NCBI RefSeq assembly: GCF_000014785.1
Contig: NC_008340.1
Coordinates: 2,580,001-2,612,000 of the forward strand
Direction: 5' to 3'
DNA length: 32,000 nucleotides
Origin: Alkalilimnicola ehrlichii MLHE-1
Lineage (GTDB): Bacteria; Pseudomonadota; Gammaproteobacteria; Nitrococcales; Halorhodospiraceae
How positions within the stretch are numbered: position 1 is the stretch's first letter; each line of letters opens with the position of its first letter. The translations under genes were made by a program, and so were the position numbers. The notes under the pieces are model-generated. The model was not told where the DNA came from. It saw only the letters and a list, made by a program, of their open reading frames with translations, and searched no databases. Below, in pieces: positions 9,299 through 32,000 of this stretch.

Positions 9299-9684
9299 CG
9301 GGGGGTGGGTGTGGCGGGTGCCCTCCCCCTGGTCACTGCGAGCCCCCGACCCATCACCCGTCACTGCGAGCCCCCGACCCATCACCCGTCACTGCGAGCC
9401 CCCGACCCATCACCCGTCACTGCGAGCCCCCGACCCATCACCCGTCACTGCGAGCCCCGGAGGGGCGCGGCAGTCCACGCCAGGGTATGGATCGCCGCGT
9501 CGCTTCGCTCCTCGCGATGACGGGGGGTGGCGCCCCCACCGTCACTGCGAGCGCGGCCCCGCCCCCACCGTCACTGCGAGCGCGGCCCCACCCCCACCGT
9601 CACTGCGAGGAGGCGAAGCCGACGTGGCAGTCTACCGCCCTGGATCGCCACGGGCCTGCAGCCCTCGCGATGACGGGGAGGGGG
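9299..9684 (+). repeat. Repeat array A of the GTCACTGCGAG...CTCGCGATGAC hairpin family
   Basis: It fills the whole convergent spacer between the regulator and ppiD. Heads fall at 9332/9360/9388/9416/9444 (28-bp period, identical filler CCCCCGACCCATCACCC). A full hairpin unit spans 9444-9523. Further heads fall at 9541/9570/9599 (29-bp period), and a second full unit ends about 9677. Confidence 0.95.
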
Positions 9685-14557: not shown

Positions 14558-15012
14558 GGTGGATCGCCGCGTCGCTGCGCTCCTCGCGATGACGGGGAGA
14601 AACCCTCCGGCCCGCGCGATGACGGGGTGGTGGGCCCCCACCGTCACTGCGAGGAGTGGCCCCCAACCGTCACTGCGAGGAGTGGCCCCCAACCGTCACT
14701 GCGAGGAGCGAAGCGACGTGGCAGTCTACCCCTCTGGATCGCCACGGGCCGTCGGCCCTCGCGATGACGGGGGTGGTGCCCCCTGCCCCCGTCACTGCGA
14801 GCCCCGAAGGGGCGTGGCAGTCCATGCCGGGGTGTGGATCGCCGCGTCGCTTCGCTCCTCGCGATGACGGGGAGAAACCCTCCGGCCCGCGCGATGACGG
14901 GGTGATGGGCCCCCACCGTCACTGCGAGGAGGCGAAGCCGACGTGGCAGTCTACCCCTCTGGATCGCCACGGGCCTTCGGCCCTCGCGATGACGGGGGTG
15001 GTGCCCCGCGAT
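14558..15012 (+). repeat. Repeat array B of the hairpin family (clpX-lon spacer)
   Basis: Tail-only modules at 14558-14630. Heads at 14643/14669/14695 (26-bp period, filler GAGTGGCCCCCAACC). Full units run about 14695-14770, 14791-14870 and 14918-14995. Confidence 0.95.
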
Positions 15013-19545: not shown

Positions 19546-20240
19546 GGACTGCCGCGCCCCCTTCGGGGGCTCGCAGTGACAGTGGAGGCACCACCCCCCG
19601 GTTATCGCGAGGGCCGCCACCTCCTCCCCGTCATCGCCAGGGCCGCCACCTCCTCCCCGTCATCGCCAGGGCCGCCACCTCCTCTCCGTCATCGCGAGGG
19701 CCGAAGGCCCGTGGCGATCCAGAGGGGTAGACTGCCACGTCGGCTTCGCCTCCTCGCAGTGACAGTGGGGGTACACCACCGCCCGTCATCGCGAGGAGCG
19801 CCCCTCCCCCCGTCATCGCGAGGGCCGAAGGCCCGTGGCGATCCAGAGGGGTAGACTGCCACGTCGGCTTCGCCTCCTCGCAGTGACAGTGGGGGTACAC
19901 CACCGCCCGTCATCGCGAGGAGCGCCCCTCCCCCCGTCATCGCGAGGGCCGAAGGCCCGTGGCGATCCAGGGCGGTAGACTGCCACGTCGGCTTCGCCTC
20001 CTCGCAGTGACAGTGGGGGTACACCACCGCCCGTCATCGCGAGGAGCGCCCCTCCCCCCGTCATCGCGAGGGCCGAAGGCCCGTGGCGATCCAGGGCGGT
20101 AGACTGCGACGTCGGCTTCGCCTCCTCGCAGTGACGGTGGGGGTGGGTCCCCGCTCGCAGCGACGGCGGGGCTTCCCCCGTCATCGCGAGGGCCGCCCCT
20201 CCCCTCGTCATCGCGAGGAGCGAAGCGACGCGGCGATCCA
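19546..20240 (-). repeat. Repeat array C of the hairpin family (inverted orientation)
   Basis: Tail micro-tandem at 19601/19630/19659/19688 (29-bp period). Four composite units follow with a 124-bp period (GTCATCGCGAGGGCCGAAGG at 19688/19812/19936/20060). Degenerate modules end at about 20240, 25 bp from the GIY-YIG stop. Confidence 0.95.
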
Positions 20241-21390: not shown

Positions 21391-21673
21391 ACTGCACAGA
21401 GGGGCGTGGCAGTCCAGGCGGCGGGTGGATCGCCGCGTCGCTTCGCTCCTCGCGATGACGGGGGTGGGTGCCGCCCCCACCGTCACTGCGAGGAGGCGAA
21501 GCCGACGTGGCAGTCTACCGCTCTGGATCGCCACGGGCCTTCGGCCCTCGCGATGACGGGGGTGCCCCGTTCCTCGTTGATTCGGGCCCGCGCAGCGGGG
21601 AGGGGGGCTCGCGATGACGGGGTGGGTGCCGCCCCCACCGTCACTGCGAGCCCCGGAGGGGCGTGGCAGTCCA
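21391..21673 (+). repeat. Repeat array D of the hairpin family
   Basis: A degenerate head plus GGGGCGTGGCAGTCC...TGGATCGCCGCGTCGCTTCGCTCCTCGCGATGACGG, a full unit at 21481-21560, a tail-only module about 21608-21620, and a head plus half unit at 21639-21673. Confidence 0.9.
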
Positions 21674-21814: not shown

Positions 21815-23002
21815 TCAGATCTGCCGCAACGCACGCTCCAAATGCCCAAAGCCGATCCGCTCCTGTTCCAGCCTCAGGCAATCCTGCAGGGTATCTTCCC
21901 GCAGGTCCTGGAAAAGCGCCTGTTCCGCCTCGGTGAGTAGCGAAAGGCGCCCTGTGAACCGCTTGTTAGCCGGCTCCCGCCCCCACATCTCACGGTGCAT
22001 CTCCAACGTCTCGCGGTCCATGAGCAGGGATCGGGCGTGGGGCAGGCGGGTGCGCAGGCGGTGGAGCATGGCGAAGCCGTGGGTGTCGATATCGCCCCAG
22101 TAGTGGACCGCCACCTCCCGCAGCCAGCCAACCCCCGCCAACCGCTCCAGCCCATAGCCCAGACCGAAGATCACCAGGCCGCCCGGGTGGTCGGGGAAGG
22201 CCAGGCCATTGATCTCGTTCTCGGTGATGAAGACCCGGCGCACCGGCAGGCGCAGGTCGGCGAACTGTTCCGGGGGCACCGAGAGGTCGCTCAGCCCCTG
22301 CACGTAGAGGGCGGGGTCCAGCAACCGGAAGCGCACCAGCGCCGGCTTCTCCCGCAGCCCGAAACGCCGTTCGAAGCCCCGGGCGCCGGTGGCCGACGGG
22401 TCGATGGCGGCCTCGGGCAGCACCGCGTCCAACAACTCGGTGAACAGCCGGCGCCGGGCCTCGATGAACTTGGTGTCCACCCCGGGGATGTCCAGTTGCC
22501 GCAGATAGATACCGGGCCGGGGGTGGGCGCGGAACCAGTCCAGCACGTCCAGAATGCGCGGCCAGGCCCCGGCCTCCGCCAGCGCCTGCAGCGGCCGCCG
22601 GGCCAGCCAGTCTGCCAGCGACGGGAAGCGGCGCAGGGTCTCCCCGGCCAGCGCCCGAAAGCGGGCCGCCTCCCGCTCACGGCCGATCAGGCGCAAGCCG
22701 TCCGCCTCGCTCGGGACAATCGCCCCGGCGGGCAGGTCATTGGCCCCATGCACCCGGTGGTTCACCCGCCGCCACTCGATCCCGTAGCCGTACCCCCGCT
22801 CATCGCGGCTGCCGGCCTGAAGCTGCTGCACCCAACGGCGCACGGCGACGAAGTCCTCGGCCAGATCCCGGGAGGTGGGGCGGCGCAGCCGCAGCGTGAG
22901 CGGAAAGAGCGACTCGCCGCGCACATAGGCGGCCAGCCAATCGCCGCGCTCCCATTGGCGCAACAACTGCTGGCGCAGCTCGTCGGGTGTCGTCCAACTC
23001 AT
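21815..23002 (-). CDS. jetD: Wadjet JetD (DUF3322 plus Toprim/DUF2220 nuclease subunit)
   Basis: From the internal ATG at 23002 (ATGA overlap with the jetC stop): MSWTTPDELRQQLLRQWERGDWL... Toprim acidic motifs are VFITENEINGLAF and YWGDIDTHGFAMLHRLR. The track start at 23278 lies inside jetC and is rejected. Confidence 0.9.
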   Translation of the reverse strand: MSWTTPDELRQQLLRQWERGDWLAAYVRGESLFPLTLRLRRPTSRDLAEDFVAVRRWVQQLQAGSRDERGYGYGIEWRRVNHRVHGANDLPAGAIVPSEADGLRLIGREREAARFRALAGETLRRFPSLADWLARRPLQALAEAGAWPRILDVLDWFRAHPRPGIYLRQLDIPGVDTKFIEARRRLFTELLDAVLPEAAIDPSATGARGFERRFGLREKPALVRFRLLDPALYVQGLSDLSVPPEQFADLRLPVRRVFITENEINGLAFPDHPGGLVIFGLGYGLERLAGVGWLREVAVHYWGDIDTHGFAMLHRLRTRLPHARSLLMDRETLEMHREMWGREPANKRFTGRLSLLTEAEQALFQDLREDTLQDCLRLEQERIGFGHLERALRQI

Positions 23003-26000
23003 GGCGCGATACGCTGGCGGGCGGCCTTCTCCGCCTGGTACTCCGCAATGGTGAGATTGCGCACCATAGACTCGCGCCCCTCCACGTTGTGCACAAACCC
23101 CACGCTGGCCACGAAGGGCTCGATGATGTGGATCTTCTGCAACGGGGTGACGATCAGCAACTGCAGGTTCAACCGCTGGAACAGCTCCAGGCCGTAACGG
23201 GCGGACTCGTCCGAGCCGCGGCCGAAGGCCTCGTCGATGACCACGAAGCGGAACGAGCGCGAGCGGGTCTCGCCCCACTCCAGCCCGAACTGGTAGGCCA
23301 GGCTCGCGGCCAGCACGGTATAGGCCAGCTTCTCCTTCTGCCCCCCGGACTTGCCCCCGGAATCGGCGTAGTGCTCGTACTCGCTGTCGTCCTCGCGCCA
23401 GCGTTCGGAGGCGGAGAAGACGAACCAGTTGCGCACATCGGTGACCTTGCGGGTCCAGCGCCGGTCCAGGTCGGTGGTTCCCTCCCGGCCGCGGAAGCGC
23501 TCGATGATGGCCTTCACCTGCAGGAACTTGGCCTCGGAGTACTGATCGTCGTCCGAGCCGGTCACCGCCCCCTCGGTGCAGGCGCGCAGGCTCTGCTGAA
23601 AGTCGCGGATCTCCGCGTCCGGGGCGCTTTCCGCCATCAGGGTGATGTAACGGTTGTCGTTGTAGTCGATCTCACGCAGCGAGCGGTTGATGGTGCCGAT
23701 GCGCTCCAGGATCGCCTGGCGCTCCCGATGCAGCCGGCTCTGGAAGGCGGCCACCTCGCGGATGGTGTTTTCGTTGAGCAGCTCCTTGAAGCGGGCCTCG
23801 AAGCGGGGCAGATCATCTGCCTGCAACTGCTCGAGCATGGCGCGATAGTCGCCGGCGGCCTCGACGCTCACATCCACCTCCTGGCTGTCCAGCGGCCAGG
23901 CGTCCTGGTAGCGGCGCATGGCGTCGATGATGCGGTCGCGCAACTGCGCCAGGCGCTTGTCCTCCGCGTCGATCTTGCCCTGCAGCCATTCGCGCATGTC
24001 CTTCTCGCGGTTGTCGCAGGACTCCACCGTCAGGGTGTGCTCACCCAGGGCCTCGTCGCGCATGGCGGCCAGGCGCGGAAAGTAGGTCTGCTGCGCCTCT
24101 TCCGGTGTCGACTCCAACAGCGTGTGGCAATCCTGCCACTGGGCCCGGGCCTGCTCCTGTTTCAGCTCGTTGGCGCTGATCTCGCGATCCGCCTGGCGGA
24201 CCTCGCCCTCGACGCCCTTGATGGTCTTTTCCAGCTCATCCAGTTGCCGCTCCAGCGCCCGGAGCACGTCCGAGCCCTCGGCCAGCTCCCGGTACTCGCG
24301 CTCCAGCGCCTCAATGTCGGCAGCCAGCGGACGCCAGTCCAGGGCCTGAAAATCCTGGAACAGGGTCAGCTCCTGGATGGTGTCGCGGCGGGCCTCCTGG
24401 GCCCGCCGTTCGTCCTCCCAGCCACCGATGCGCTTGGCGATGGCCTGCATGCGCTCGGCCAGCCCGTCGGCCTCGGCCTCCAGCGCGGCGATCTTCGCCT
24501 CGTTGCTCCAGCCCAGCACATAACGGGTGCGGTCATCGATACGGTGGCGGTCGTCCTTCTCGTGGCGGCCACCGCCGGCCTTTATCTGCCCGGCACGGGT
24601 GATCGCCCGCTTCTCACGACGGAATTGCTGCAGATCGGTGCAGCAAGCGTAATCGAAGCGCTGCGCCAGCGCCTGCTCCAGCCAGGTATAAAACGCCGAC
24701 TCCGGCCGGATGGCCAGCTTGCGCACCAGCGAGTCGGCGTGCAGCGACGGCGGCGGCGCGTCGCGGGCTTCGCGCACGCGGTAGTAGACCAACCGCCCCC
24801 GCAACCGGGTGCGGTCCACCCACTCGGCGACGCGGGCGTAGTGGCTGTCGGGCACCAGCAGCGACAGGCCGAAGTTGTGCAGCACCCGTTCGATGGCGCC
24901 CTCCCAGTCGCGCTCGTCGTCACGCACCTGCAGCAGTTCACCGGCGAAGGGCAGGTCCTCGGCGGGCACCTCCAGCGCGCGGCACAGGGCGGTGCGGATG
25001 GCGAGGATCTCCGCCGGGATGTTGGAGCGTCGACCGCGCAGCGATGCCAGCTCGGCATCCAGGTCCTCGTGCCGCCCCTTGAGCTGGTGCAGCTCCACGC
25101 TGGCCTCCGTAATCCGGTTCTGCAGCTCGCTGCGGGCGGTCTCGGTGGCCTCGCGGGCCACGGTGAGCGCCTCGCGGTTGGCGTGAAAGACCTCGTCGCT
25201 GGTGGCATCGGGCAGCTCCAGCCGGTGCGCCAGCCGCCGGTAGCGCTCGGCCTTCTCGCTGCGCTCCGCCTTCTCCCGCCGCTTGCGCTCCAGCTCCGCC
25301 TTGATCCGCTCCAGGCGGTCGCCGCCGTTCTCGGCGATCGCCTGCTTGAGCTCGTCGCGCCGGGCCCGCTGCTCGGTGAGCCGAGTGCTCAGCCCCTCAA
25401 TGCGCTGCTGCAGCCGCTCGTGCTCCTGGCCCAGGTTGTCCAACCGGCGGTCCAGCAGCTCGGCCTTCAGCGAGGCGAACCAGGGCCGCAACGCCTGGCG
25501 GCAATCGCGCAGCTCCCGGGCCCGGGTGGCCCGTTGGTCGTGCTCGTCGGCATCGCGCACCAGGGGAATCAACTGCGCCACCTGCGACTTGGCCTTCAAC
25601 ACCGCCTCGTGGGCCCGGTTGAGGTCGTCGAAATGGCGGATCAGCGCCTCGATCCGCTCCTCGACGGGGAAGGCCTCCAGCATGTGACTGCGCACGAACT
25701 CGGTCAGGTTACCCACCGACTTCATGGAGACCGTCTGGTTAAAGAGCTCCAGGGCCTGCTCATTGTCGATGCCGAAGCGCCGCCGGAAGGCACCGCCGTA
25801 GGGCGGAAAGGTGTCGTACAACTCCACGTGGGGCAGCCCGCGCAGGCGCTTGCGCAGGTTGGCCAGGTCGGTGCCGAAATTGGCGAAGTGCTCGGCGATG
25901 TTCAGCGGGCGGTCGGCGACCACGAAAAACCGCGCCGGCTGGCCCTGGGTGTCCTTCATCCAGAAGACCTGGGCCAGGGTCACATCGTGGCCGAAGCCCT

Positions 26001-26391
26001 CGTTGTGGAAGTGGCCGAGGATGACCGAGTAGTTGTTATGGTCGCGCAGGCCCACCGGCTTGCTGGCCAAGCCGGCGTCGCTACGCTCCGACTTGTAGTA
26101 GCCGAGGACGTAAGAGCGCAGGCTGCGCTCCTTGGCCTCCGCGCCGGCGGCCTTGTTGTAGGTGATCCGCTGAGCCGGCACCAGCAGCGTGGTGATGGCG
26201 TCCACCAAGGTGGACTTGCCGGAGCCGATGTCCCCGGTCAGCAGGCTGTTGTCGCCGCCGGGCTGCAGCGACCAGACGCGGTCGTGGAAGGTGCCCCAGT
26301 TGAACACCTCCAGCCGCTGGAGGCGAAAACCGGTGCGCTGGTCGGAGCCGGCGAAATCCAGTCCCTGGGTTTCCATACGATGGGGTTCCAT
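22999..26391 (-). CDS. jetC: Wadjet JetC (SMC/MukB-like ATPase)
   Basis: 1130 aa from the ATG at 26391. It has FRLQRLEVFNWGTFHDRVW, Walker A LLTGDIGSGKSTLVDAI, a long central Glu/Arg/Leu-rich coiled-coil region, and Walker B FRFVVIDEAFGRGSD. Confidence 0.92.
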   Translation of the reverse strand: MEPHRMETQGLDFAGSDQRTGFRLQRLEVFNWGTFHDRVWSLQPGGDNSLLTGDIGSGKSTLVDAITTLLVPAQRITYNKAAGAEAKERSLRSYVLGYYKSERSDAGLASKPVGLRDHNNYSVILGHFHNEGFGHDVTLAQVFWMKDTQGQPARFFVVADRPLNIAEHFANFGTDLANLRKRLRGLPHVELYDTFPPYGGAFRRRFGIDNEQALELFNQTVSMKSVGNLTEFVRSHMLEAFPVEERIEALIRHFDDLNRAHEAVLKAKSQVAQLIPLVRDADEHDQRATRARELRDCRQALRPWFASLKAELLDRRLDNLGQEHERLQQRIEGLSTRLTEQRARRDELKQAIAENGGDRLERIKAELERKRREKAERSEKAERYRRLAHRLELPDATSDEVFHANREALTVAREATETARSELQNRITEASVELHQLKGRHEDLDAELASLRGRRSNIPAEILAIRTALCRALEVPAEDLPFAGELLQVRDDERDWEGAIERVLHNFGLSLLVPDSHYARVAEWVDRTRLRGRLVYYRVREARDAPPPSLHADSLVRKLAIRPESAFYTWLEQALAQRFDYACCTDLQQFRREKRAITRAGQIKAGGGRHEKDDRHRIDDRTRYVLGWSNEAKIAALEAEADGLAERMQAIAKRIGGWEDERRAQEARRDTIQELTLFQDFQALDWRPLAADIEALEREYRELAEGSDVLRALERQLDELEKTIKGVEGEVRQADREISANELKQEQARAQWQDCHTLLESTPEEAQQTYFPRLAAMRDEALGEHTLTVESCDNREKDMREWLQGKIDAEDKRLAQLRDRIIDAMRRYQDAWPLDSQEVDVSVEAAGDYRAMLEQLQADDLPRFEARFKELLNENTIREVAAFQSRLHRERQAILERIGTINRSLREIDYNDNRYITLMAESAPDAEIRDFQQSLRACTEGAVTGSDDDQYSEAKFLQVKAIIERFRGREGTTDLDRRWTRKVTDVRNWFVFSASERWREDDSEYEHYADSGGKSGGQKEKLAYTVLAASLAYQFGLEWGETRSRSFRFVVIDEAFGRGSDESARYGLELFQRLNLQLLIVTPLQKIHIIEPFVASVGFVHNVEGRESMVRNLTIAEYQAEKAARQRIAP

Positions 26392-26393
26392 GC

Positions 26394-26993
26394 TCACTGC
26401 CCGTCGCCGGCGGTAGTGGTGGCCTCGGCGTGCTCGCGGTACTCGGCCAGGCGCTGGTCGAACTCCGCCAGCCACTGGGCGTCGATATAGGCCTTGATGA
26501 TCCGGCGCACCTCGTACTGATTATCCTGCCCGCGCAGCCGGCGCAGGAAACCCAGCTCCACCACCTTGTTGATGTCCGCGTGCACCCGGTCCACCAACTT
26601 CGCCTCGTTGGCGCTGGCCGGCAGGAAGACACGGATCAGCTCCACGATCTGCTCCCGCGAGAGGATCAGCCGCGGGTCGCCGCCGCCGGCATCGTGCTCC
26701 ACCAGCTTCTTGCGCAGCAGCGCCAGCAGCAGGCTTACCGGGTAGGTGAGCTGGCGGCGCGGCACCAGCCGGGGCAGCTCCGGCTCGTCCTCGGCGGGGG
26801 TCCGCTGGCGCAGGCAGGCGTGGCCCTCGGCCTCGTCCAGCATCAGCTCCAGCCCGAGCACGGCCACGTGGTCGCGCACCCGCGCCTGGTGGTCCTCAAG
26901 CACCTGCCAGTAGCGAGGGTTCTGGTCCTTGTACAGCACACCCTTGAACAGGGTGATCAGCATGGCCGAGAAGTCGGCGTCCTGTTCGCTCAT
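26394..26993 (-). CDS. jetB: Wadjet JetB (DUF4194, kleisin-associated KITE-like subunit)
   Basis: 199 aa from the ATG at 26993: MSEQDADFSAMLITLFKGVLYKDQNPRYWQVLEDHQARVRDHVAVLGLELMLDEAEGHACLRQ. This pattern, the size, and the position between jetA and jetC are all as in JetB. Confidence 0.85.
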   Translation of the reverse strand: MSEQDADFSAMLITLFKGVLYKDQNPRYWQVLEDHQARVRDHVAVLGLELMLDEAEGHACLRQRTPAEDEPELPRLVPRRQLTYPVSLLLALLRKKLVEHDAGGGDPRLILSREQIVELIRVFLPASANEAKLVDRVHADINKVVELGFLRRLRGQDNQYEVRRIIKAYIDAQWLAEFDQRLAEYREHAEATTTAGDGQ

Positions 26994-26997
26994 AGGC

Positions 26998-28434
26998 TCA
27001 ACGGCAGAAGATAACCTGCGGTAGCGTGGCGCTGCGGGCAACGCCGTCACGGTCGCGCCAGTATACGGTCTGCTGGCGGGTTTCATCGATCACGCTGCGG
27101 TGATCCTCTGTGGCCAGGGCCAGGTAGACCACCAGTTCGGCCAGGCCCTGCTCCAGCGGGTGTTGCTCCAACAGGGCCGCCAGGCTGATCTGCTCGCGGG
27201 TCTGCAGCGCCCGGCGCACCTGCCCTTGCAGCCGGGTGCGGTCCACGTAGGCCTGGTCGAACAGCGCCGCCACGTCGCCCTCCGCCTCGCCCGCCTCCAG
27301 CACCTGCTGCTCGATGCGCGGCGTAACCGGCGGACTGAAGAGCGGGCGCTCCATGGGCAGCTCCACCCGGGGCGCGGGTTCGTCCAGGGCCATGGTGAAA
27401 TCCCGGGGCGGGGCTTCCCGCAGGTGCAGGGCCTGCTGCTCCAACTCGCGGATCAGCCCCATGATGCGGCGGTTCTCCAGCCAGGCCTGATCGTCCAGAT
27501 AGCGGCGCAACTGCTCGGAGAGCCGCGCCACCACCCGCTGGGTGTGCTCGCCCGCCGCCAGCCAGTCGTAATGGATGCGGGCCAGGGTCGGGTCGGGCGC
27601 CACCTCGGTCACGGGCTCGAGCGCCAGGGTGCGCTCGAGCAGTTCGGTCAACTCCTCCTGGCGAGCCGGGGACATGAGCAGATCCCAGAAGGCGCGGAAG
27701 CTGCGGCCCTGGTCGGAATCGGCGATGCGGTCGTGCTCGCCGAAGACCTGGTCGAGGATATCGCCCTTGCCGCCCTCCCAGGTGGCCACCTGCTCGCGCA
27801 CCTGGCGGTCCAGCGCGCGGAAGTTGGCCTCCACCTGGCGGAAGTCCCCCAGCAGCCCGCGGGCCGTGTCGGCCATCTGCAGAAAACGCTCGCGCAGGCG
27901 GGTGGGGTCCATCAGGTTCAGGTGCCCGGCCCGCACCTCGTCGATCTCGCGCTCGATGGCGTCGCGCCGCGCCTCCAGATCGCGCAGGCGGGCCTCCGGG
28001 TCGGTCTCCGCCCCCTCCACGATCTGTTTCAGCAGATCAAACACCAGGGTGAGCCGCGACTCCGCACCGATAAAGTGGGCCTGCTCCAGGCCCGCCAGCC
28101 ACTGGATCGCCTGCTCGGTGGCCGGGGTGAGGTCGTAGTGGGGTTCGTCGCTGTGCTGCGGGTAGTACTTGCGCAACCAACCGCGCTCATCGGCAGCCCA
28201 ATATGCCAGGTACTCGTGAGCGCCCTGCTGGTAGGCCTCGTCACCCAACCGGGCGCGCAGGTGGTAGAGGTAGTCCTCCAGCGCATTCTCCAGCTCCGAG
28301 GCCGGCAGCGCCCGCACGTTGGGCACCACGAAACAGCGGTGCAGAAAGGCCACGACCATCGGCGCGTTACCGGCCTGCAACAGGCGCCACCCCGGATGGG
28401 TGCGCCGCAGGCTGTATAGGTGATCGTGATCCAT
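26998..28434 (-). CDS. jetA: Wadjet JetA (DUF3375, kleisin-like subunit)
   Basis: 478 aa: MDHDHLYSLRRTHPGWRLLQAGNAPMVVAFLHRCF...LEDYLYHLR...YLAYWAADERGWLRKYY. It is the first gene of the four-gene operon. Confidence 0.88.
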   Translation of the reverse strand: MDHDHLYSLRRTHPGWRLLQAGNAPMVVAFLHRCFVVPNVRALPASELENALEDYLYHLRARLGDEAYQQGAHEYLAYWAADERGWLRKYYPQHSDEPHYDLTPATEQAIQWLAGLEQAHFIGAESRLTLVFDLLKQIVEGAETDPEARLRDLEARRDAIEREIDEVRAGHLNLMDPTRLRERFLQMADTARGLLGDFRQVEANFRALDRQVREQVATWEGGKGDILDQVFGEHDRIADSDQGRSFRAFWDLLMSPARQEELTELLERTLALEPVTEVAPDPTLARIHYDWLAAGEHTQRVVARLSEQLRRYLDDQAWLENRRIMGLIRELEQQALHLREAPPRDFTMALDEPAPRVELPMERPLFSPPVTPRIEQQVLEAGEAEGDVAALFDQAYVDRTRLQGQVRRALQTREQISLAALLEQHPLEQGLAELVVYLALATEDHRSVIDETRQQTVYWRDRDGVARSATLPQVIFCR

Positions 28435-28499: not shown

Positions 28500-29265
28500 T
28501 GTGGATCGCCGCGTCGCTGCGCTCCTCGCGATGACGGAGGGGTGGGTGCCCCCCACCGTCACTGCGAGCGCGGATCCGCCCCCACCGTCACTGCGAGGAG
28601 CGAAGCGACGTGGCAGTCTACCCCTCTGGATCGCCACGGGCCTCCGACCCTCGCGATGACGGGGGGTGTTACCCCACCGTCACTGCGAGGAGGCGAAGCC
28701 GACGTGGCAGTCTACCCCTCTGGATCGCCACGGGCCTCCGGCCCTCGCGATGACGGGGGGTGTTGCCCCCACCGTCACTGCGAGGAGGCGAAGCCGACGT
28801 GGCAGTCTACCCCTCTGGATCGCCGCGGGCCTCCGGCCCTCGCGATGACCGGGGGGTGTTGCCCCCACCGTCACTGCGAGGAGGCGAAGCCGACGTGGCA
28901 GTCTACCCCTCTGGATCGCCACGGGCCTCCGGCCCTCGCGATGACGGGGGGTGTTGCCCCCACCGTCACTGCGAGGAGGCGAAGCCGACGTGGCAGTCTA
29001 CCCCTCTGGATCGCCGCGGGCCTTCGGCCCTCGCGATGACGGGGGGTGTTGCCCCCACCGTCACTGCGAGGAGGCGAAGCCGACGTGGCAGTCTACCCCT
29101 CTGGATCGCCGCGGGCCTTCGGCCCTCGCGATGACGGGGGGTGTTGCCCCCACCGTCACTGCGAGGAGGCGAAGCCGACGTGGCAGTCTACCGCCCTGGA
29201 TCGCCGCGGGCCTCCGGCCCTCGCGATGACCGGGGGGAAAGCCTCCGGCCCTCGCGATGACGGGG
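28500..29265 (+). repeat. Repeat array E of the hairpin family (type array, 95-bp units)
   Basis: Heads GTCACTGCGAG at 28558, 28587, 28679, 28774, 28870, 28965, 29060 and 29155. Seven near-identical full units have periods of 92-96 bp. Two tail-only modules close the array at about 29265. Confidence 0.97.
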
Positions 29266-29390
29266 ATAACCCGTCAACCTGAGGGGCGGCCGTTGGACAA
29301 CGTAATTAGAGACTCATACCATATTGAGCATCCCTCCCGGCAACCTTTTGACAGCCACCGGGAATCCCGAGCCCCCAGAAGCCACCTTTC

Positions 29391-30575
29391 ATGTTAAGCG
29401 ACCAAGACCTGCTTGAACGCCTACGGAACGGGGAGTCCCGTCGGGTGGAGTTCAAACCCTCCACGGCGCAAAATACCGCGATCCGGAGGGCCATCTGTGC
29501 ATTCGCCAACGATCTTGATGGGCAGGGCGAGATCGGCGTGATCTTCGTGGGGCTCAACGATGACGGGACCTGCAAAGGGATCGAACATCCAGACCGCGAC
29601 CAGAAGAAGCTATCCGACTGGGCCTTGGGGGGCGACATCCTCCCCCTTCCTGACGTGGAAATCGGTTATCGCGAGCTGGACGGTTGCCCTGTCATAGTCG
29701 CCGAGATACGCCCCCACCAAGAACCCCCGGTACGCTACCAGGGCCAGGCGTGGGTCAGGGTTGGCACCACCAACCGCCGCGCTACTCCGGAACAGGAGAG
29801 ACGTTTGGCGGAGCGACGGCGGGGCGGAGACCTTCCCTTCGACCATCGGCCGGCCCCCGGCGCCAGTCTTGATGACCTCGATCTGAGGTACTTCGAGCGC
29901 GAGTACCTGCCCAATGCCGTCGCACCGGAGGTCCTGGAAGAGAACAACCGTAGCATCGAAGATCAACTCAACGCCCTCAGGTTTCTCACCCAGGGCCAAG
30001 TCAACCACGGTGCTCTGCTCGTCCTGGGGCACGACCCGACCGCCTATATACCGGGGGCCTACGTGCAGTTCCTACGCATCGACGGAACCGAGCTGGGCGA
30101 CCCCATCAAGGACGAAAAGAGACTGACCGGCAACCTGCCCGAGGTCATGGCGCAGCTGGACGAGTTGTTGGAGGTGCACATCCAGGTTGCTGTCGACATC
30201 GAGGCCGGATCACGGGAGCAGCGCCAGCCCGACTACCCCGTTGTTGCCTTGCAGCAACTCACCCGGAACGCCCTCATCCATCGCGCCTACGAAGGCAGCC
30301 ACGCGCCGGTCCGCGTCTATTGGTTCAGAGACCGGGTGGAAATTCAGAACCCCGGCGGACTCTACGGCCAAGTCACCACCGACAACTTCGGTCAGGGTGT
30401 CACCGATTACCGCAACCCCCTGATAGCAGAAGCCATGCATATTCTCGGCTACGTACAGAGATTCGGGTTCGGCATCCCATTGGCACAGCGCCACCTGCGG
30501 GAAAACGGCAACCCCGACCCCGATTTTCAGTTCGCGCCAGAGTTCCTGGCCGTCACCGTGAGGGCAGTGACGTGA
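29391..30575 (+). CDS. Schlafen/AlbA_2-domain protein with a C-terminal HATPase_c_4-like domain (COG2865-like), no terminal wHTH
   Basis: The N-terminal motif set is LLERLRNGESRRVEFKPS...AICAFANDLDGQGEIGVIFVGLNDDGTCKGI. The C-terminal segment is QLTRNALIHRAYEGSHAPVRVYWFRDRVEIQNPGGLYG...YRNPLIAEAMHILGYVQRFGFGIPL. Domain names come from motif memory, not from a search. Confidence 0.85.
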   Translation: MLSDQDLLERLRNGESRRVEFKPSTAQNTAIRRAICAFANDLDGQGEIGVIFVGLNDDGTCKGIEHPDRDQKKLSDWALGGDILPLPDVEIGYRELDGCPVIVAEIRPHQEPPVRYQGQAWVRVGTTNRRATPEQERRLAERRRGGDLPFDHRPAPGASLDDLDLRYFEREYLPNAVAPEVLEENNRSIEDQLNALRFLTQGQVNHGALLVLGHDPTAYIPGAYVQFLRIDGTELGDPIKDEKRLTGNLPEVMAQLDELLEVHIQVAVDIEAGSREQRQPDYPVVALQQLTRNALIHRAYEGSHAPVRVYWFRDRVEIQNPGGLYGQVTTDNFGQGVTDYRNPLIAEAMHILGYVQRFGFGIPLAQRHLRENGNPDPDFQFAPEFLAVTVRAVT

Positions 30576-31543
30576 TAACCATTGCCTTCTTCAACAACAA
30601 GGGTGGCGTCGGCAAGACTGCTTTGGTCTACCATTTGGCCTGGATGTTCGCCGATCAGGGCCGGTCCGTGCTCGCCGCGGACCTGGACCCCCAAGCCAAC
30701 CTCTCCACCATGTTCCTGGACGAACAAAGCCTGGAAGGCTTCTGGCCGGAGGGGGACAGCACGCATACCGTACTCTCACCCATACGCCCACTGCTGGAAG
30801 GCGAAGGCGGCATCGAAAGCCCTCATGTTGAGCCCATCGAGGACCTAGGCCTGCTGGTCGGAGACCTGGCCCTGTCCGGCTTCGAGGACGAACTCTCCCA
30901 GCAATGGCCCCGCTGCCTGGACGGCGAGAAGCGGGCCTTTCGCATCATCGGCGCCTTTGCCGAAGTCATCCAACGTGCCGGCGCCAACCGGGAAGCCGAC
31001 CTGGCGCTGGTGGATGTCGGCCCCAACCTGGGAGCCATCAATCGTGCCGCACTCATTGCCGCAGATTATGTGGTCGTGCCCCTGGGGCCGGACCTCTTTT
31101 CCCTGAAGGGACTGCAAAACCTGGGCCCCACCCTCCGACGGTGGCGTACGGACTGGCGCAAGCGGCTGCAGGAATTACCCACCAATGTACAAGCCCCATC
31201 GGGGCAAATGACGCCGATCGGTTACGTGGTCATGCAGCATTCCGTCCGACTTGACCGGCCGGTCAAGGCGTATGGCAAATGGATGGACCGGATCCCCAGC
31301 ACTTACCACCGTTACGTCCTCGACAAACCGGACGCTGCCAACCTGCGTGTCGACGACGACAGCGAATGTCTGGCTGCATTGAAGGACTATCGGAGCCTGA
31401 TGCCCATGGCTCAGGAAGCCCGCAAGCCCATGTTTCACCTCAAACCGGCGGACGGCGCCATCGGCTCCCACGTCCGTGCGGTACAAAACTGCTACAAAGA
31501 TTTCCGGGACCTGGCAGCGGCTATCGACAGCCGCACGCAGTGA
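30572..31543 (+). CDS. Orphan ParA/MinD-superfamily ATPase with a C-terminal extension
   Basis: GTG at 30572 overlaps the upstream TGA (GTGA). Motifs are VITIAFFNNKGGVGKTALV (deviant Walker A), LAADLDPQANLS and DLALVDVGPNLG. The next in-frame ATG would remove the Walker A, and the track ATG at 30320 would overlap the upstream gene by about 250 nt. Confidence 0.85.
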   Translation: MITIAFFNNKGGVGKTALVYHLAWMFADQGRSVLAADLDPQANLSTMFLDEQSLEGFWPEGDSTHTVLSPIRPLLEGEGGIESPHVEPIEDLGLLVGDLALSGFEDELSQQWPRCLDGEKRAFRIIGAFAEVIQRAGANREADLALVDVGPNLGAINRAALIAADYVVVPLGPDLFSLKGLQNLGPTLRRWRTDWRKRLQELPTNVQAPSGQMTPIGYVVMQHSVRLDRPVKAYGKWMDRIPSTYHRYVLDKPDAANLRVDDDSECLAALKDYRSLMPMAQEARKPMFHLKPADGAIGSHVRAVQNCYKDFRDLAAAIDSRTQ

Positions 31544-32000
31544 CGGTGGGGGCACCCCCCGTCATCGTGATGAGTGCAGGCCCTCCCCCCGGCATCGCGA
31601 GGGCCGAAGGCCCGTGGCGATCCAAGGCGGTAGACTGCCACGTCGGCTTCGCCTCCTCGCAGTGACGGTGTGGGCAACACCCCCCGTCATCGCGAGGGCC
31701 GAAGGCCCGTGGCGATCCAAGGCGGTAGACTGCCGCGTCGGCTTCGCCTCCTCGCAGTGACGGTGTGGGCAACACCCCCCGTCATCGCGAGGGCCGAAGG
31801 CCCGTGGCGATCCAAGGCGGTAGACTGCCACGTCGGCTTCGCCTCCTCGCAGTGACGGTGGGGTAACACCCCCGTCATCGCGAGGGCCGAAGGCCCGCGG
31901 CGATCCAGGGCGGTAGACTGCCACGTCGGCTTCGCCTCCTCGCAGTGACGGTGGGGGCAACACCCCCCGTCATCGCGAGGGCCGAAGGCCCGCGGCGATC
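31543..32000 (-). repeat. Repeat array F of the hairpin family (inverted orientation, runs off the window end)
   Basis: Tails G(T/G)CATCGCGAGGGCCGAAGG fall at 31591, 31686, 31781, 31874 and 31969 (period 93-95 bp). The reverse complement of a unit is near-identical to array E units, including the linker GGGGGGTGTTGCCC. Confidence 0.95.

Follow-up and report, generated by a model that had tools for sequence, protein, structure and literature searches.

Two overlapping genes occupy positions 29391 to 31543 of a window of 32,000 nucleotides (the whole stretch of DNA that was analysed; contig NC_008340.1, positions 2,580,001 to 2,612,000 of the forward strand). The source of the window is the chromosome of Alkalilimnicola ehrlichii MLHE-1, in which an annotated "ParA family protein" is 100% identical to the product of the second gene. 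The first open reading frame (ORF1; 29391-30575, + strand) encodes a stand-alone Schlatpase of 394 amino acids (aa), consisting of a Schlafen/AlbA_2 nuclease domain and a GHKL (HATPase_c_4) domain without a helix-turn-helix (HTH). The second (ORF2; 30572-31543, + strand) encodes a deviant-Walker-A ATPase of 323 aa with the ParA/Soj fold, and belongs to a distinct clade whose representative in the PDB is DIP2308 (3pg5). The start codon of ORF2 and the stop codon of ORF1 share the four nucleotides GTGA (30572-30575, + strand), an overlap that implies translational coupling. An earlier note on this DNA, made from the sequence alone, had proposed that the two genes form a defence module. Schlafen and Schlatpase effectors are known already; the obligate ParA-like partner is the new part.

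The Schlafen and ParA-like proteins

ORF1 has two recognizable domains. Residues 15-131 match the Pfam family SLFN_AlbA_2 (E 1e-16; 61.7 bits, cut-off 25.3), and residues 305-389, encoded at 30303-30557 on the + strand, match HATPase_c_4 (PF13749; E 3e-19; 69.2 bits, cut-off 26). The chain stops five residues past the HATPase_c_4 domain and therefore lacks a winged HTH (wHTH). These matches agree with the earlier note, which had described an AlbA_2/Schlafen N-terminus, a HATPase_c_4 C-terminus, and no wHTH. No HEPN family in Pfam matched ORF1 at E<=0.01. The catalytic Schlafen motif E15-x4-E20-x-K22 (ESRRVEFK; 29433-29456, + strand) can be read from the sequence, the Schlafen box C36-A-F-A-N40 is present, and E15, E20, and N40 are invariant across 69 members of the ORF1 family. 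The start codon used by NCBI lies 18 codons downstream, giving a protein of 376 aa that drops 29391-29444 and loses the catalytic E15. Homologues of ORF1 are about 394 aa long and align from residue 1, which supports the 394-aa form.

The N-box of the GHKL domain (RNALIHRAY, residues 292-300) lies just before the start of the Pfam domain, and its residues N293, H297, R298, and Y300 are invariant in the ORF1 family. Four residues before the invariant N-box asparagine, at the position expected for the GHKL hydrolysis glutamate, ORF1 has a glutamine (Q289; codon 30255-30257). By its motif offset from this asparagine, Q289 was equated with E314 of RzAgo, which is the base for ATP hydrolysis (bioRxiv 10.64898/2026.05.29.728809). 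Position 289 is a glutamine in 45 and a glutamate in 24 members of the paired family; the unpaired Schlatpase paralogues found in the same loci have glutamate. The presence of glutamine at the position of the hydrolysis glutamate suggests that the GHKL domain of the ORF1 lineage binds ATP without hydrolysing it efficiently. The AlphaFold2 (AF2) model of ORF1 is confident (predicted local distance difference test score, pLDDT, 91). The best Foldseek match is DIP2311 (3lmm) over the full length, followed by GHKL kinases (PDK, HK853) and, weakly, by human SLFN11 and SLFN14.

The frame of ORF2 is open from 30320. All of its homologues begin M-x-T-I-A-F-F-N-N-K-G-G-V-G-K-T, and the start is therefore placed at the GTG at 30572. 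Together with Pfam matches to AAA_31 and CbiA, these N-termini confirm what had been read from the sequence, namely a ParA-type ATPase with a GTG start that overlaps the ORF1 stop. Positions 30599-30619 (+ strand) encode the deviant Walker A motif KGGVGKT, with K10 as the signature lysine and K15 as the P-loop lysine. Among 58 homologues, G12 to T16, D37, D39, and D148 never vary, and at least 90% have K10.

The AF2 model of ORF2 is likewise confident (pLDDT 91). Its top match in both structure and sequence is DIP2308, followed by Soj, ParA, McdA, and MinD; Foldseek gives a probability of 1.0 for each of the latter four and an E value of 2e-13 for Soj. The chain aligns to Soj and ParA structures over its whole length, and about 70 extra residues are family-specific insertions. 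Because the whole chain aligns to Soj, these residues are insertions in the fold and not a C-terminal domain, contrary to the C-terminal extension of about 110 aa that had been proposed for ORF2. Like ParA/Soj, MinD, and McdA, ORF2 conserves the signature lysine of the deviant Walker A motif and the switch aspartates within the same fold. In contrast to these proteins, it has no partner of the ParB or MinE type, its close relatives are found off plasmids, it carries the family insertions, and the partners within its wider family are toxic effectors.

The two best structural matches come from Corynebacterium diphtheriae and are uncharacterised structural-genomics targets. Identity is low (about 25% between DIP2308 and ORF2, and about 18% between DIP2311 and ORF1), and DIP2311 is longer than ORF1, at 583 aa. 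The locus tags of DIP2308 and DIP2311 are three apart in one genome, and the two may represent a distant version of the same association.

Conservation of the pair

Relatives of the pair were sought by a profile scan of one genome per GTDB species, using an alignment of ORF2 homologues. Relatives of ORF2 were found at 80 loci, with 53-84% identity, in at least 17 bacterial phyla as counted from the titles of the records. The groups represented include Gammaproteobacteria, Cyanobacteriota, Planctomycetota, Actinomycetota, and Acidobacteriota, as well as Chloroflexota, Nitrospirota, Verrucomicrobiota, Bacteroidota, and Spirochaetia. In a separate search of 1.84 billion cluster representatives, 522 relatives of ORF2 were found at E<=1e-30.

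A relative of ORF1 lies directly upstream of the ATPase gene, on the same strand, in all 80 loci (tblastn), so that the AlbA_2 partner immediately upstream, on which the proposal of a module depended, is a constant feature. A 4-nt overlap of start and stop (ATGA, GTGA, or TTGA) is present in 71 of them. When the ORFs of the flanks were clustered all against all, ORF1 and ORF2 were the only conserved genes; no conserved third gene was found beside the pair in the 80 loci, and the next-best real cluster comprised five loci. In four loci, the pair is directly followed by a shared gene whose product has about 1000 aa. The distance matrices of ORF1 and ORF2 co-vary (Mantel r=0.60), a value reached by none of 2000 permutations. 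A natural fusion also exists: P0373 (731 aa) carries SLFN_AlbA_2, HATPase_c_4, and ParA in a single chain with a short linker, and 7 contigs, drawn from 4 sources, carry this sequence without any change. A second apparent fusion, P0482, was discarded; it has an arginine-rich middle region resembling a frameshift and was found on one contig only. Given the synteny at every locus, the shared overlap, the co-divergence, and the natural fusion, ORF1 and ORF2 constitute one functional unit, in which linkage is obligate and translation coupled, and a physical complex of their products is very probable.

No homologue of ORF2 with at least 35% identity was found among 72,556 plasmids of PLSDB or 50,697 phage records of INPHARED, and a plasmid or phage partition gene was rejected for this reason. 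Of 80 matches on viral contigs, only two carry the Schlafen-ParA pair. The clustering of the flanks identified no conserved ParB, centromere, rep, relaxase, or integrase near the pair. The ParA-like gene is thus an orphan without parB, rep, relaxase, or integrase nearby, as the earlier note had stated, and its close relatives are not consistently found with ParB or on plasmids. Against the NCBIfam model ParA_partition, ORF2 scores 65.2 bits (cut-off 180) and matches only over residues 3-46. ORF2 is not a partition ParA, because it has neither ParB nor any other conserved third gene beside the pair, has no close plasmid homologue, and scores below the ParA_partition cut-off. Its relatives appear to form a distinct ParA clade to which a non-partition role may be given.

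Known defence systems were compared by means of the component hidden Markov models of PADLOC-DB v2.0, and no system in that collection matches both proteins at full length. The matches of ORF1 are partial and confined to the Schlafen regions of proteins associated with prokaryotic Argonautes (pAgo), and ORF2 matches PDC-M28B only over the Walker A region (residues 3-42). With partial or sub-threshold matches in PADLOC and NCBIfam, assignment to a named defence system was rejected. Targeted literature searches found no paper that describes a Schlafen-ParA pair, in keeping with the earlier impression that the pairing was not a recognised system. A ParA-like partner of Schlafen proteins is not mentioned in the paper on prokaryotic Schlafens (PMC13056530), the BREX survey (PMC12839542), or the Schlatpase preprint.

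Relatives and proposed function

Several characterised proteins resemble ORF1. Prokaryotic Schlafens (pSlfn) with the E-x4-E-x-K motif are phage-activated anti-phage tRNases, and the "Slfn-HisKinase" architecture is their commonest class, at 34% (PMC13056530). The combination of SLFN and GHKL domains termed Schlatpase cleaves tRNA upon ATP-driven tetramerisation (bioRxiv 10.64898/2026.05.29.728809). ORF1 shares with these proteins SLFN_AlbA_2, the E-x4-E-x-K motif, the AFAN box, and the PF13749 GHKL domain. The characterised members have a sensor in the same chain (Ig-like, DUF262, or pAgo core), whereas ORF1 has no fused sensor or HTH, has an obligate coupled ParA-like ATPase, and carries glutamine in place of the hydrolysis glutamate E314. 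TrlG, which confers temperature-induced growth arrest in Photorhabdus, has AlbA_2 at residues 14-128, HATPase_c_4 at 298-365, and no HTH (PMC7554251), and therefore shares the architecture and approximate size of ORF1. Its partners differ: in the Photorhabdus TRL system they are TrlF (annotated as a histidinol phosphatase) and the 79-aa regulator TrlR, with no ParA-like ATPase, whereas the ParA-like gene is the only one conserved beside ORF1. The sole precedent found for the association itself is a 2013 survey, whose Table 1 lists a ParA/Soj ATPase as the operon partner of HEPN/Schlafen-fused proteins (PMC3710099). These MAE_18760 HEPN operons similarly link a ParA/Soj ATPase to conflict proteins of the RNase type, some of them Schlafen-fused. 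However, their effector is defined by HEPN, which Pfam does not detect in ORF1, and they occupy one unnamed table line that was never described as a Schlafen-GHKL and ParA pair.

More remote full-length relatives of ORF2 (23-36% identity) are found beside other partners. At 21 viral-contig loci, a SIR2_2 protein of about 288 aa that resembles ThsA and LmuA is encoded downstream of the ATPase, mostly with a 4-nt overlap; this arrangement is also present on a Spirosoma plasmid and in Cellulomonas. PADLOC did not recognise the two-gene ParA-SIR2 cassette as a system. At 25 viral-contig loci, the downstream gene encodes a RelA_SpoT (toxSAS-like) protein of 220-240 aa. P0445 (545 aa; 5 contigs) is a fusion of the ParA-like ATPase (residues 5-329) to a RES toxin domain (368-500). 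Because the ATPase is constant and its toxic partners (SIR2, RelA_SpoT, RES) are swappable, the ATPase is likely to be the regulator or sensor and the partner the effector. The earlier proposal of a sensor/effector pair is thereby supported, as the ATPase relatives are coupled or fused to SIR2, RelA_SpoT, and RES; the anti-phage or anti-plasmid function that accompanied the proposal is inferred.

Examples of the ParA-SIR2 loci are L095:5001-6889 and L179:7001-8898, with L120:2415-4282 and L128:4787-6645 among the viral contigs, and examples of the ParA-RelA_SpoT loci are L123:8414-10182, L146:10001-11807, and L168:10001-11838. Phrann gp30, the antitoxin of the gp29 toxSAS, was considered as a member of the ATPase clade and rejected, since tblastn of the phage collection gave no mycobacteriophage match. 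In the P22-like phages ST160 (L094:2756-5065) and SE1, the c2 repressor gene is followed by a DUF3024 gene and then by a ParA-like relative, to which the ST160 record assigns a partition or regulatory function. Prophage exclusion genes classically occupy this moron slot, close to the repressor. In C. epidermidicanis, the DIP2308 orthologue has GmrSD/MmeI restriction genes on one side and a Fic gene on the other, and no Schlatpase was found within 7 kb of it.

With moderate confidence, the pair is judged to be a conflict module of two genes, self-contained and horizontally mobile, of the abortive-infection or toxin type. The mechanism proposed for it draws on three precedents: phage-activated tRNases among the pSlfn proteins, ATP-driven assembly of Schlatpases, and growth arrest by TrlG. 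The RNase activity, the formation of a complex, the direction of control, the trigger, and the anti-phage role are inferred. Coupled translation would deliver ORF1 and ORF2 together and in fixed proportion. ORF1 would be the effector, a Schlafen RNase and most likely a tRNase, whose activity would depend on ATP-driven oligomerisation via the GHKL domain; a toxic role is supported by the growth arrest that TrlG, with the same architecture, brings about. ORF2 would be an ATP-dependent dimerisation switch that binds the Schlatpase and gates its assembly into an active tRNase, either by keeping ORF1 inactive until an invader-derived cue appears or by licensing its assembly. The ATPase could respond to DNA or to a phage protein as the cue; the nuclease would then be released or licensed, leading to translation arrest. 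The earlier suggestion that the effector acts against phage or plasmid DNA is probably wrong, because Schlafen domains are now known as tRNases (PMC13056530).

The genomic context of the pair is mixed. Families in the flanks were counted as pooled totals over neighbours, and the picture of the context is therefore qualitative. In three loci (L083-L085) the pair lies inside a BREX-related operon, and the stop codon of the ATPase gene overlaps the start of a DUF1156 methyltransferase gene by 4 nt. On a viral contig (L097), a PglZ-like gene is coupled downstream of the pair. L087 carries genes for MmeI restriction-modification and for RhuM/Fic within 10 kb of the pair, and Hma, type III restriction-modification, and AbiL genes are found in other flanks. 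L088 has the pair in a region rich in toxin-antitoxin (TA) genes (BrnT, RES, HNH). The proximity to known defence systems anticipated by the earlier note is therefore real for some islands and for BREX-related operons, but many loci have plain housekeeping contexts. Such a mixture is consistent with a small selfish cassette that has entered defence islands in some cases, whether by landing there or by being recruited, and it fits a TA-like selfish cassette equally well.

The BREX-related island itself (L083:850-20987; also L084 and L085) encodes in its first part an SNF2/NOV_C helicase, a SACS-like protein of 1406 aa, the Schlafen and ParA-like proteins, and the DUF1156 methyltransferase. Its further genes encode AAA_15/21 with DUF4276, AAA_21 with DUF3696, and HEPN-DUF499.

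Several observations weigh against a conflict module with a defensive function. Two Schlafen-HisKinase proteins, which may or may not have had a ParA partner, gave no defence in E. coli (PMC13056530). At 55-85% between phyla, the identity of the ATPase is higher than is usual for a sensor engaged in an arms race. The catalytic motif has at position 22 a lysine in 45 of the 69 ORF1 family members and a threonine in 22, or a third of the family. The 176 pooled neighbours (Pfam; 41 loci) are mostly housekeeping genes, so that enrichment in defence islands is not demonstrated, and in L090 the pair lies between pilT/U and pyrB/ruvX. Finally, the data on the order in which the partners decay are confounded by the selection of loci and by possible indel errors of long reads. 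ORF1 is truncated, frameshifted, or mostly deleted beside an intact ATPase gene in 12 of 79 loci chosen via an intact ATPase (L005, L015, L017, L023, L024, L052, L054, L056, L060, L067, L071, and L080). In two of three loci chosen via ORF1 (L087 and L088), the ATPase gene is frameshifted beside an intact ORF1, which may be an artefact of long-read assembly.

The same data bear on the possibility that the pair is a TA or stress growth-arrest cassette, with ORF1 as the toxin and ORF2 as an ATP-dependent antitoxin, which persists through addiction or dormancy and not through the arrest of phages. This is rather unlikely, although much of the evidence can be read in its favour: a horizontally scattered, two-gene overlapping cassette often stands alone among housekeeping genes or in TA-rich regions, TrlG produces a temperature-induced arrest of growth, and the ATPase relatives pair with toxSAS-like and RES toxins. 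Loss of ORF1 beside an intact ATPase in the 12 loci is also what would be expected of a costly partner, but the two loci with the opposite pattern run counter to it, subject to the same doubt about assembly errors. Neither a toxin-first order nor an antitoxin as large as 323 aa is typical of type II TA systems, some loci lie inside defence operons, and TA function and abortive-infection defence are not mutually exclusive.

Two further explanations were considered. As an accessory or back-up module, it would depend on a large neighbouring system (Wadjet in this window, BREX-related systems or Hma elsewhere). The adjacency of Wadjet, the overlap with the DUF1156 methyltransferase gene in L083-L085, the gene of about 1000 aa downstream in four loci, and a 2026 survey that found Schlafen-HisK-wHTH proteins inside BREX and BREX-related loci (PMC12839542) all point in this direction. 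Such dependence is nevertheless improbable, as the partner is the only neighbour conserved over the 80 loci, Wadjet is not a recurrent neighbour, and many loci have housekeeping flanks only. Still less probable is a ParA-driven positioning or partition device in which ORF1 serves as adaptor or cargo, as a nucleic-acid-binding analogue of ParB, or a role for ORF1 as a transcription regulator. ORF2 does have the full ParA/Soj fold with intact ATPase residues, and ParA proteins always work with a stimulating partner. Database entries also describe ORF1 as a "putative transcriptional regulator" or as a "DNA binding domain-containing protein", but ORF1 has no HTH and keeps a nuclease active site. 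Close homologues of ORF2 are absent from the plasmid and phage collections searched, ParB, centromere, rep, and integrase are not conserved nearby, and the ParA_partition score is far under its cut-off; the related ATPases, moreover, pair with SIR2, RelA_SpoT, and RES toxins and not with cargo adaptors.

The ATPase may also be part of a wider pattern. On a tentative reading, less likely than not, the DIP2308-type ATPases serve a whole superfamily of small abortive-infection systems as an interchangeable chassis for sensing and regulation. Their ATP-dependent dimer switch would then be coupled, according to lineage, to a Schlafen tRNase, a SIR2 NADase, a RelA/SpoT toxSAS, a RES toxin, or a HEPN RNase. 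This switch possibly senses the state of DNA or the nucleoid, or a phage protein, and the pair in the window might then be the most widespread and most conserved branch.

The tRNA-targeting Schlafen nucleases are a newly established antiviral effector common to bacteria and humans. In bacteria they most often occur as Schlafen plus GHKL without a sensor domain, a form for which no trigger is known and which, assayed on its own, conferred no defence. The obligate ParA-like partner offers a testable answer to the question of how one large Schlatpase branch is controlled, and if the chassis idea is true, the control of the abundant sensor-less, stand-alone Schlatpases would be explained. The finding also gives a non-partition role to the ParA clade of 3pg5, uncharacterised since 2010, and indicates sister two-gene systems with SIR2, RelA/SpoT, and RES partners that PADLOC does not recognise.

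Surroundings of the pair in the window

The cassette has a guanine-plus-cytosine content of 62%, compared with 67-71% in its surroundings, and is thus of lower content, as had been suspected from the earlier reading. A candidate sigma-70-type promoter (TGGACA-17-TACCAT; 29294-29322, + strand) was identified by a consensus scan 69 nt 5' of the ORF1 start. The scan upstream of ORF1 gave one site where 0.4 would be expected, which is weak evidence.

A Wadjet operon, jetD-jetC-jetB-jetA, lies at 21815-28434 (- strand) and was identified from its Pfam families (JetA = DUF3375; JetB/MksE; JetD_C with DUF3322; AAA_29 with SbcC_Walker_B). The operon is complete (jetA, 478 aa; jetB, 230 aa; jetC, 1158 aa; jetD, 487 aa), and the longest ORFs of adjacent jet genes overlap each other. 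Upstream, beyond jetD-C-B-A, are the housekeeping genes tig, clpX, and lon and a gene for a SurA-like/PPIase-domain protein.

Tandem repeats lie on both sides of the cassette, outside the module. An array of seven 95-bp repeats (28578-29237, + strand) separates jetA from ORF1, and an inverted array of the same unit (31585-32000, - strand) follows ORF2 and continues past the end of the window. The inverted arms of the two arrays extend up to 279 nt and are 94% complementary. The bracketing of the cassette by inverted arrays, reported in the earlier note, is therefore real, but it is not specific to the cassette: the 95-bp unit also occurs at four further intergenic sites in the window, beside housekeeping genes, and is therefore a genome-wide repeat and not a cassette boundary. 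No Rfam match was found for the unit, and the arrays were rejected both as a boundary and as a structured RNA. The repeats and the adjacency of Wadjet are not conserved features of the module.

The sites of the repeat family in the window are 9332-9636, 14633-14955, 19589-20216, 21482-21519, 28578-29237, and 31585-32000. The repeats are tandem and intergenic, with periods of 26-29, 95, and 124 bp and a common core, GTCACTGCGAGG...CCTCGCGATGACGG. They are scattered between genes of both kinds, housekeeping and island, and frequently form arrays, which may run in either direction.

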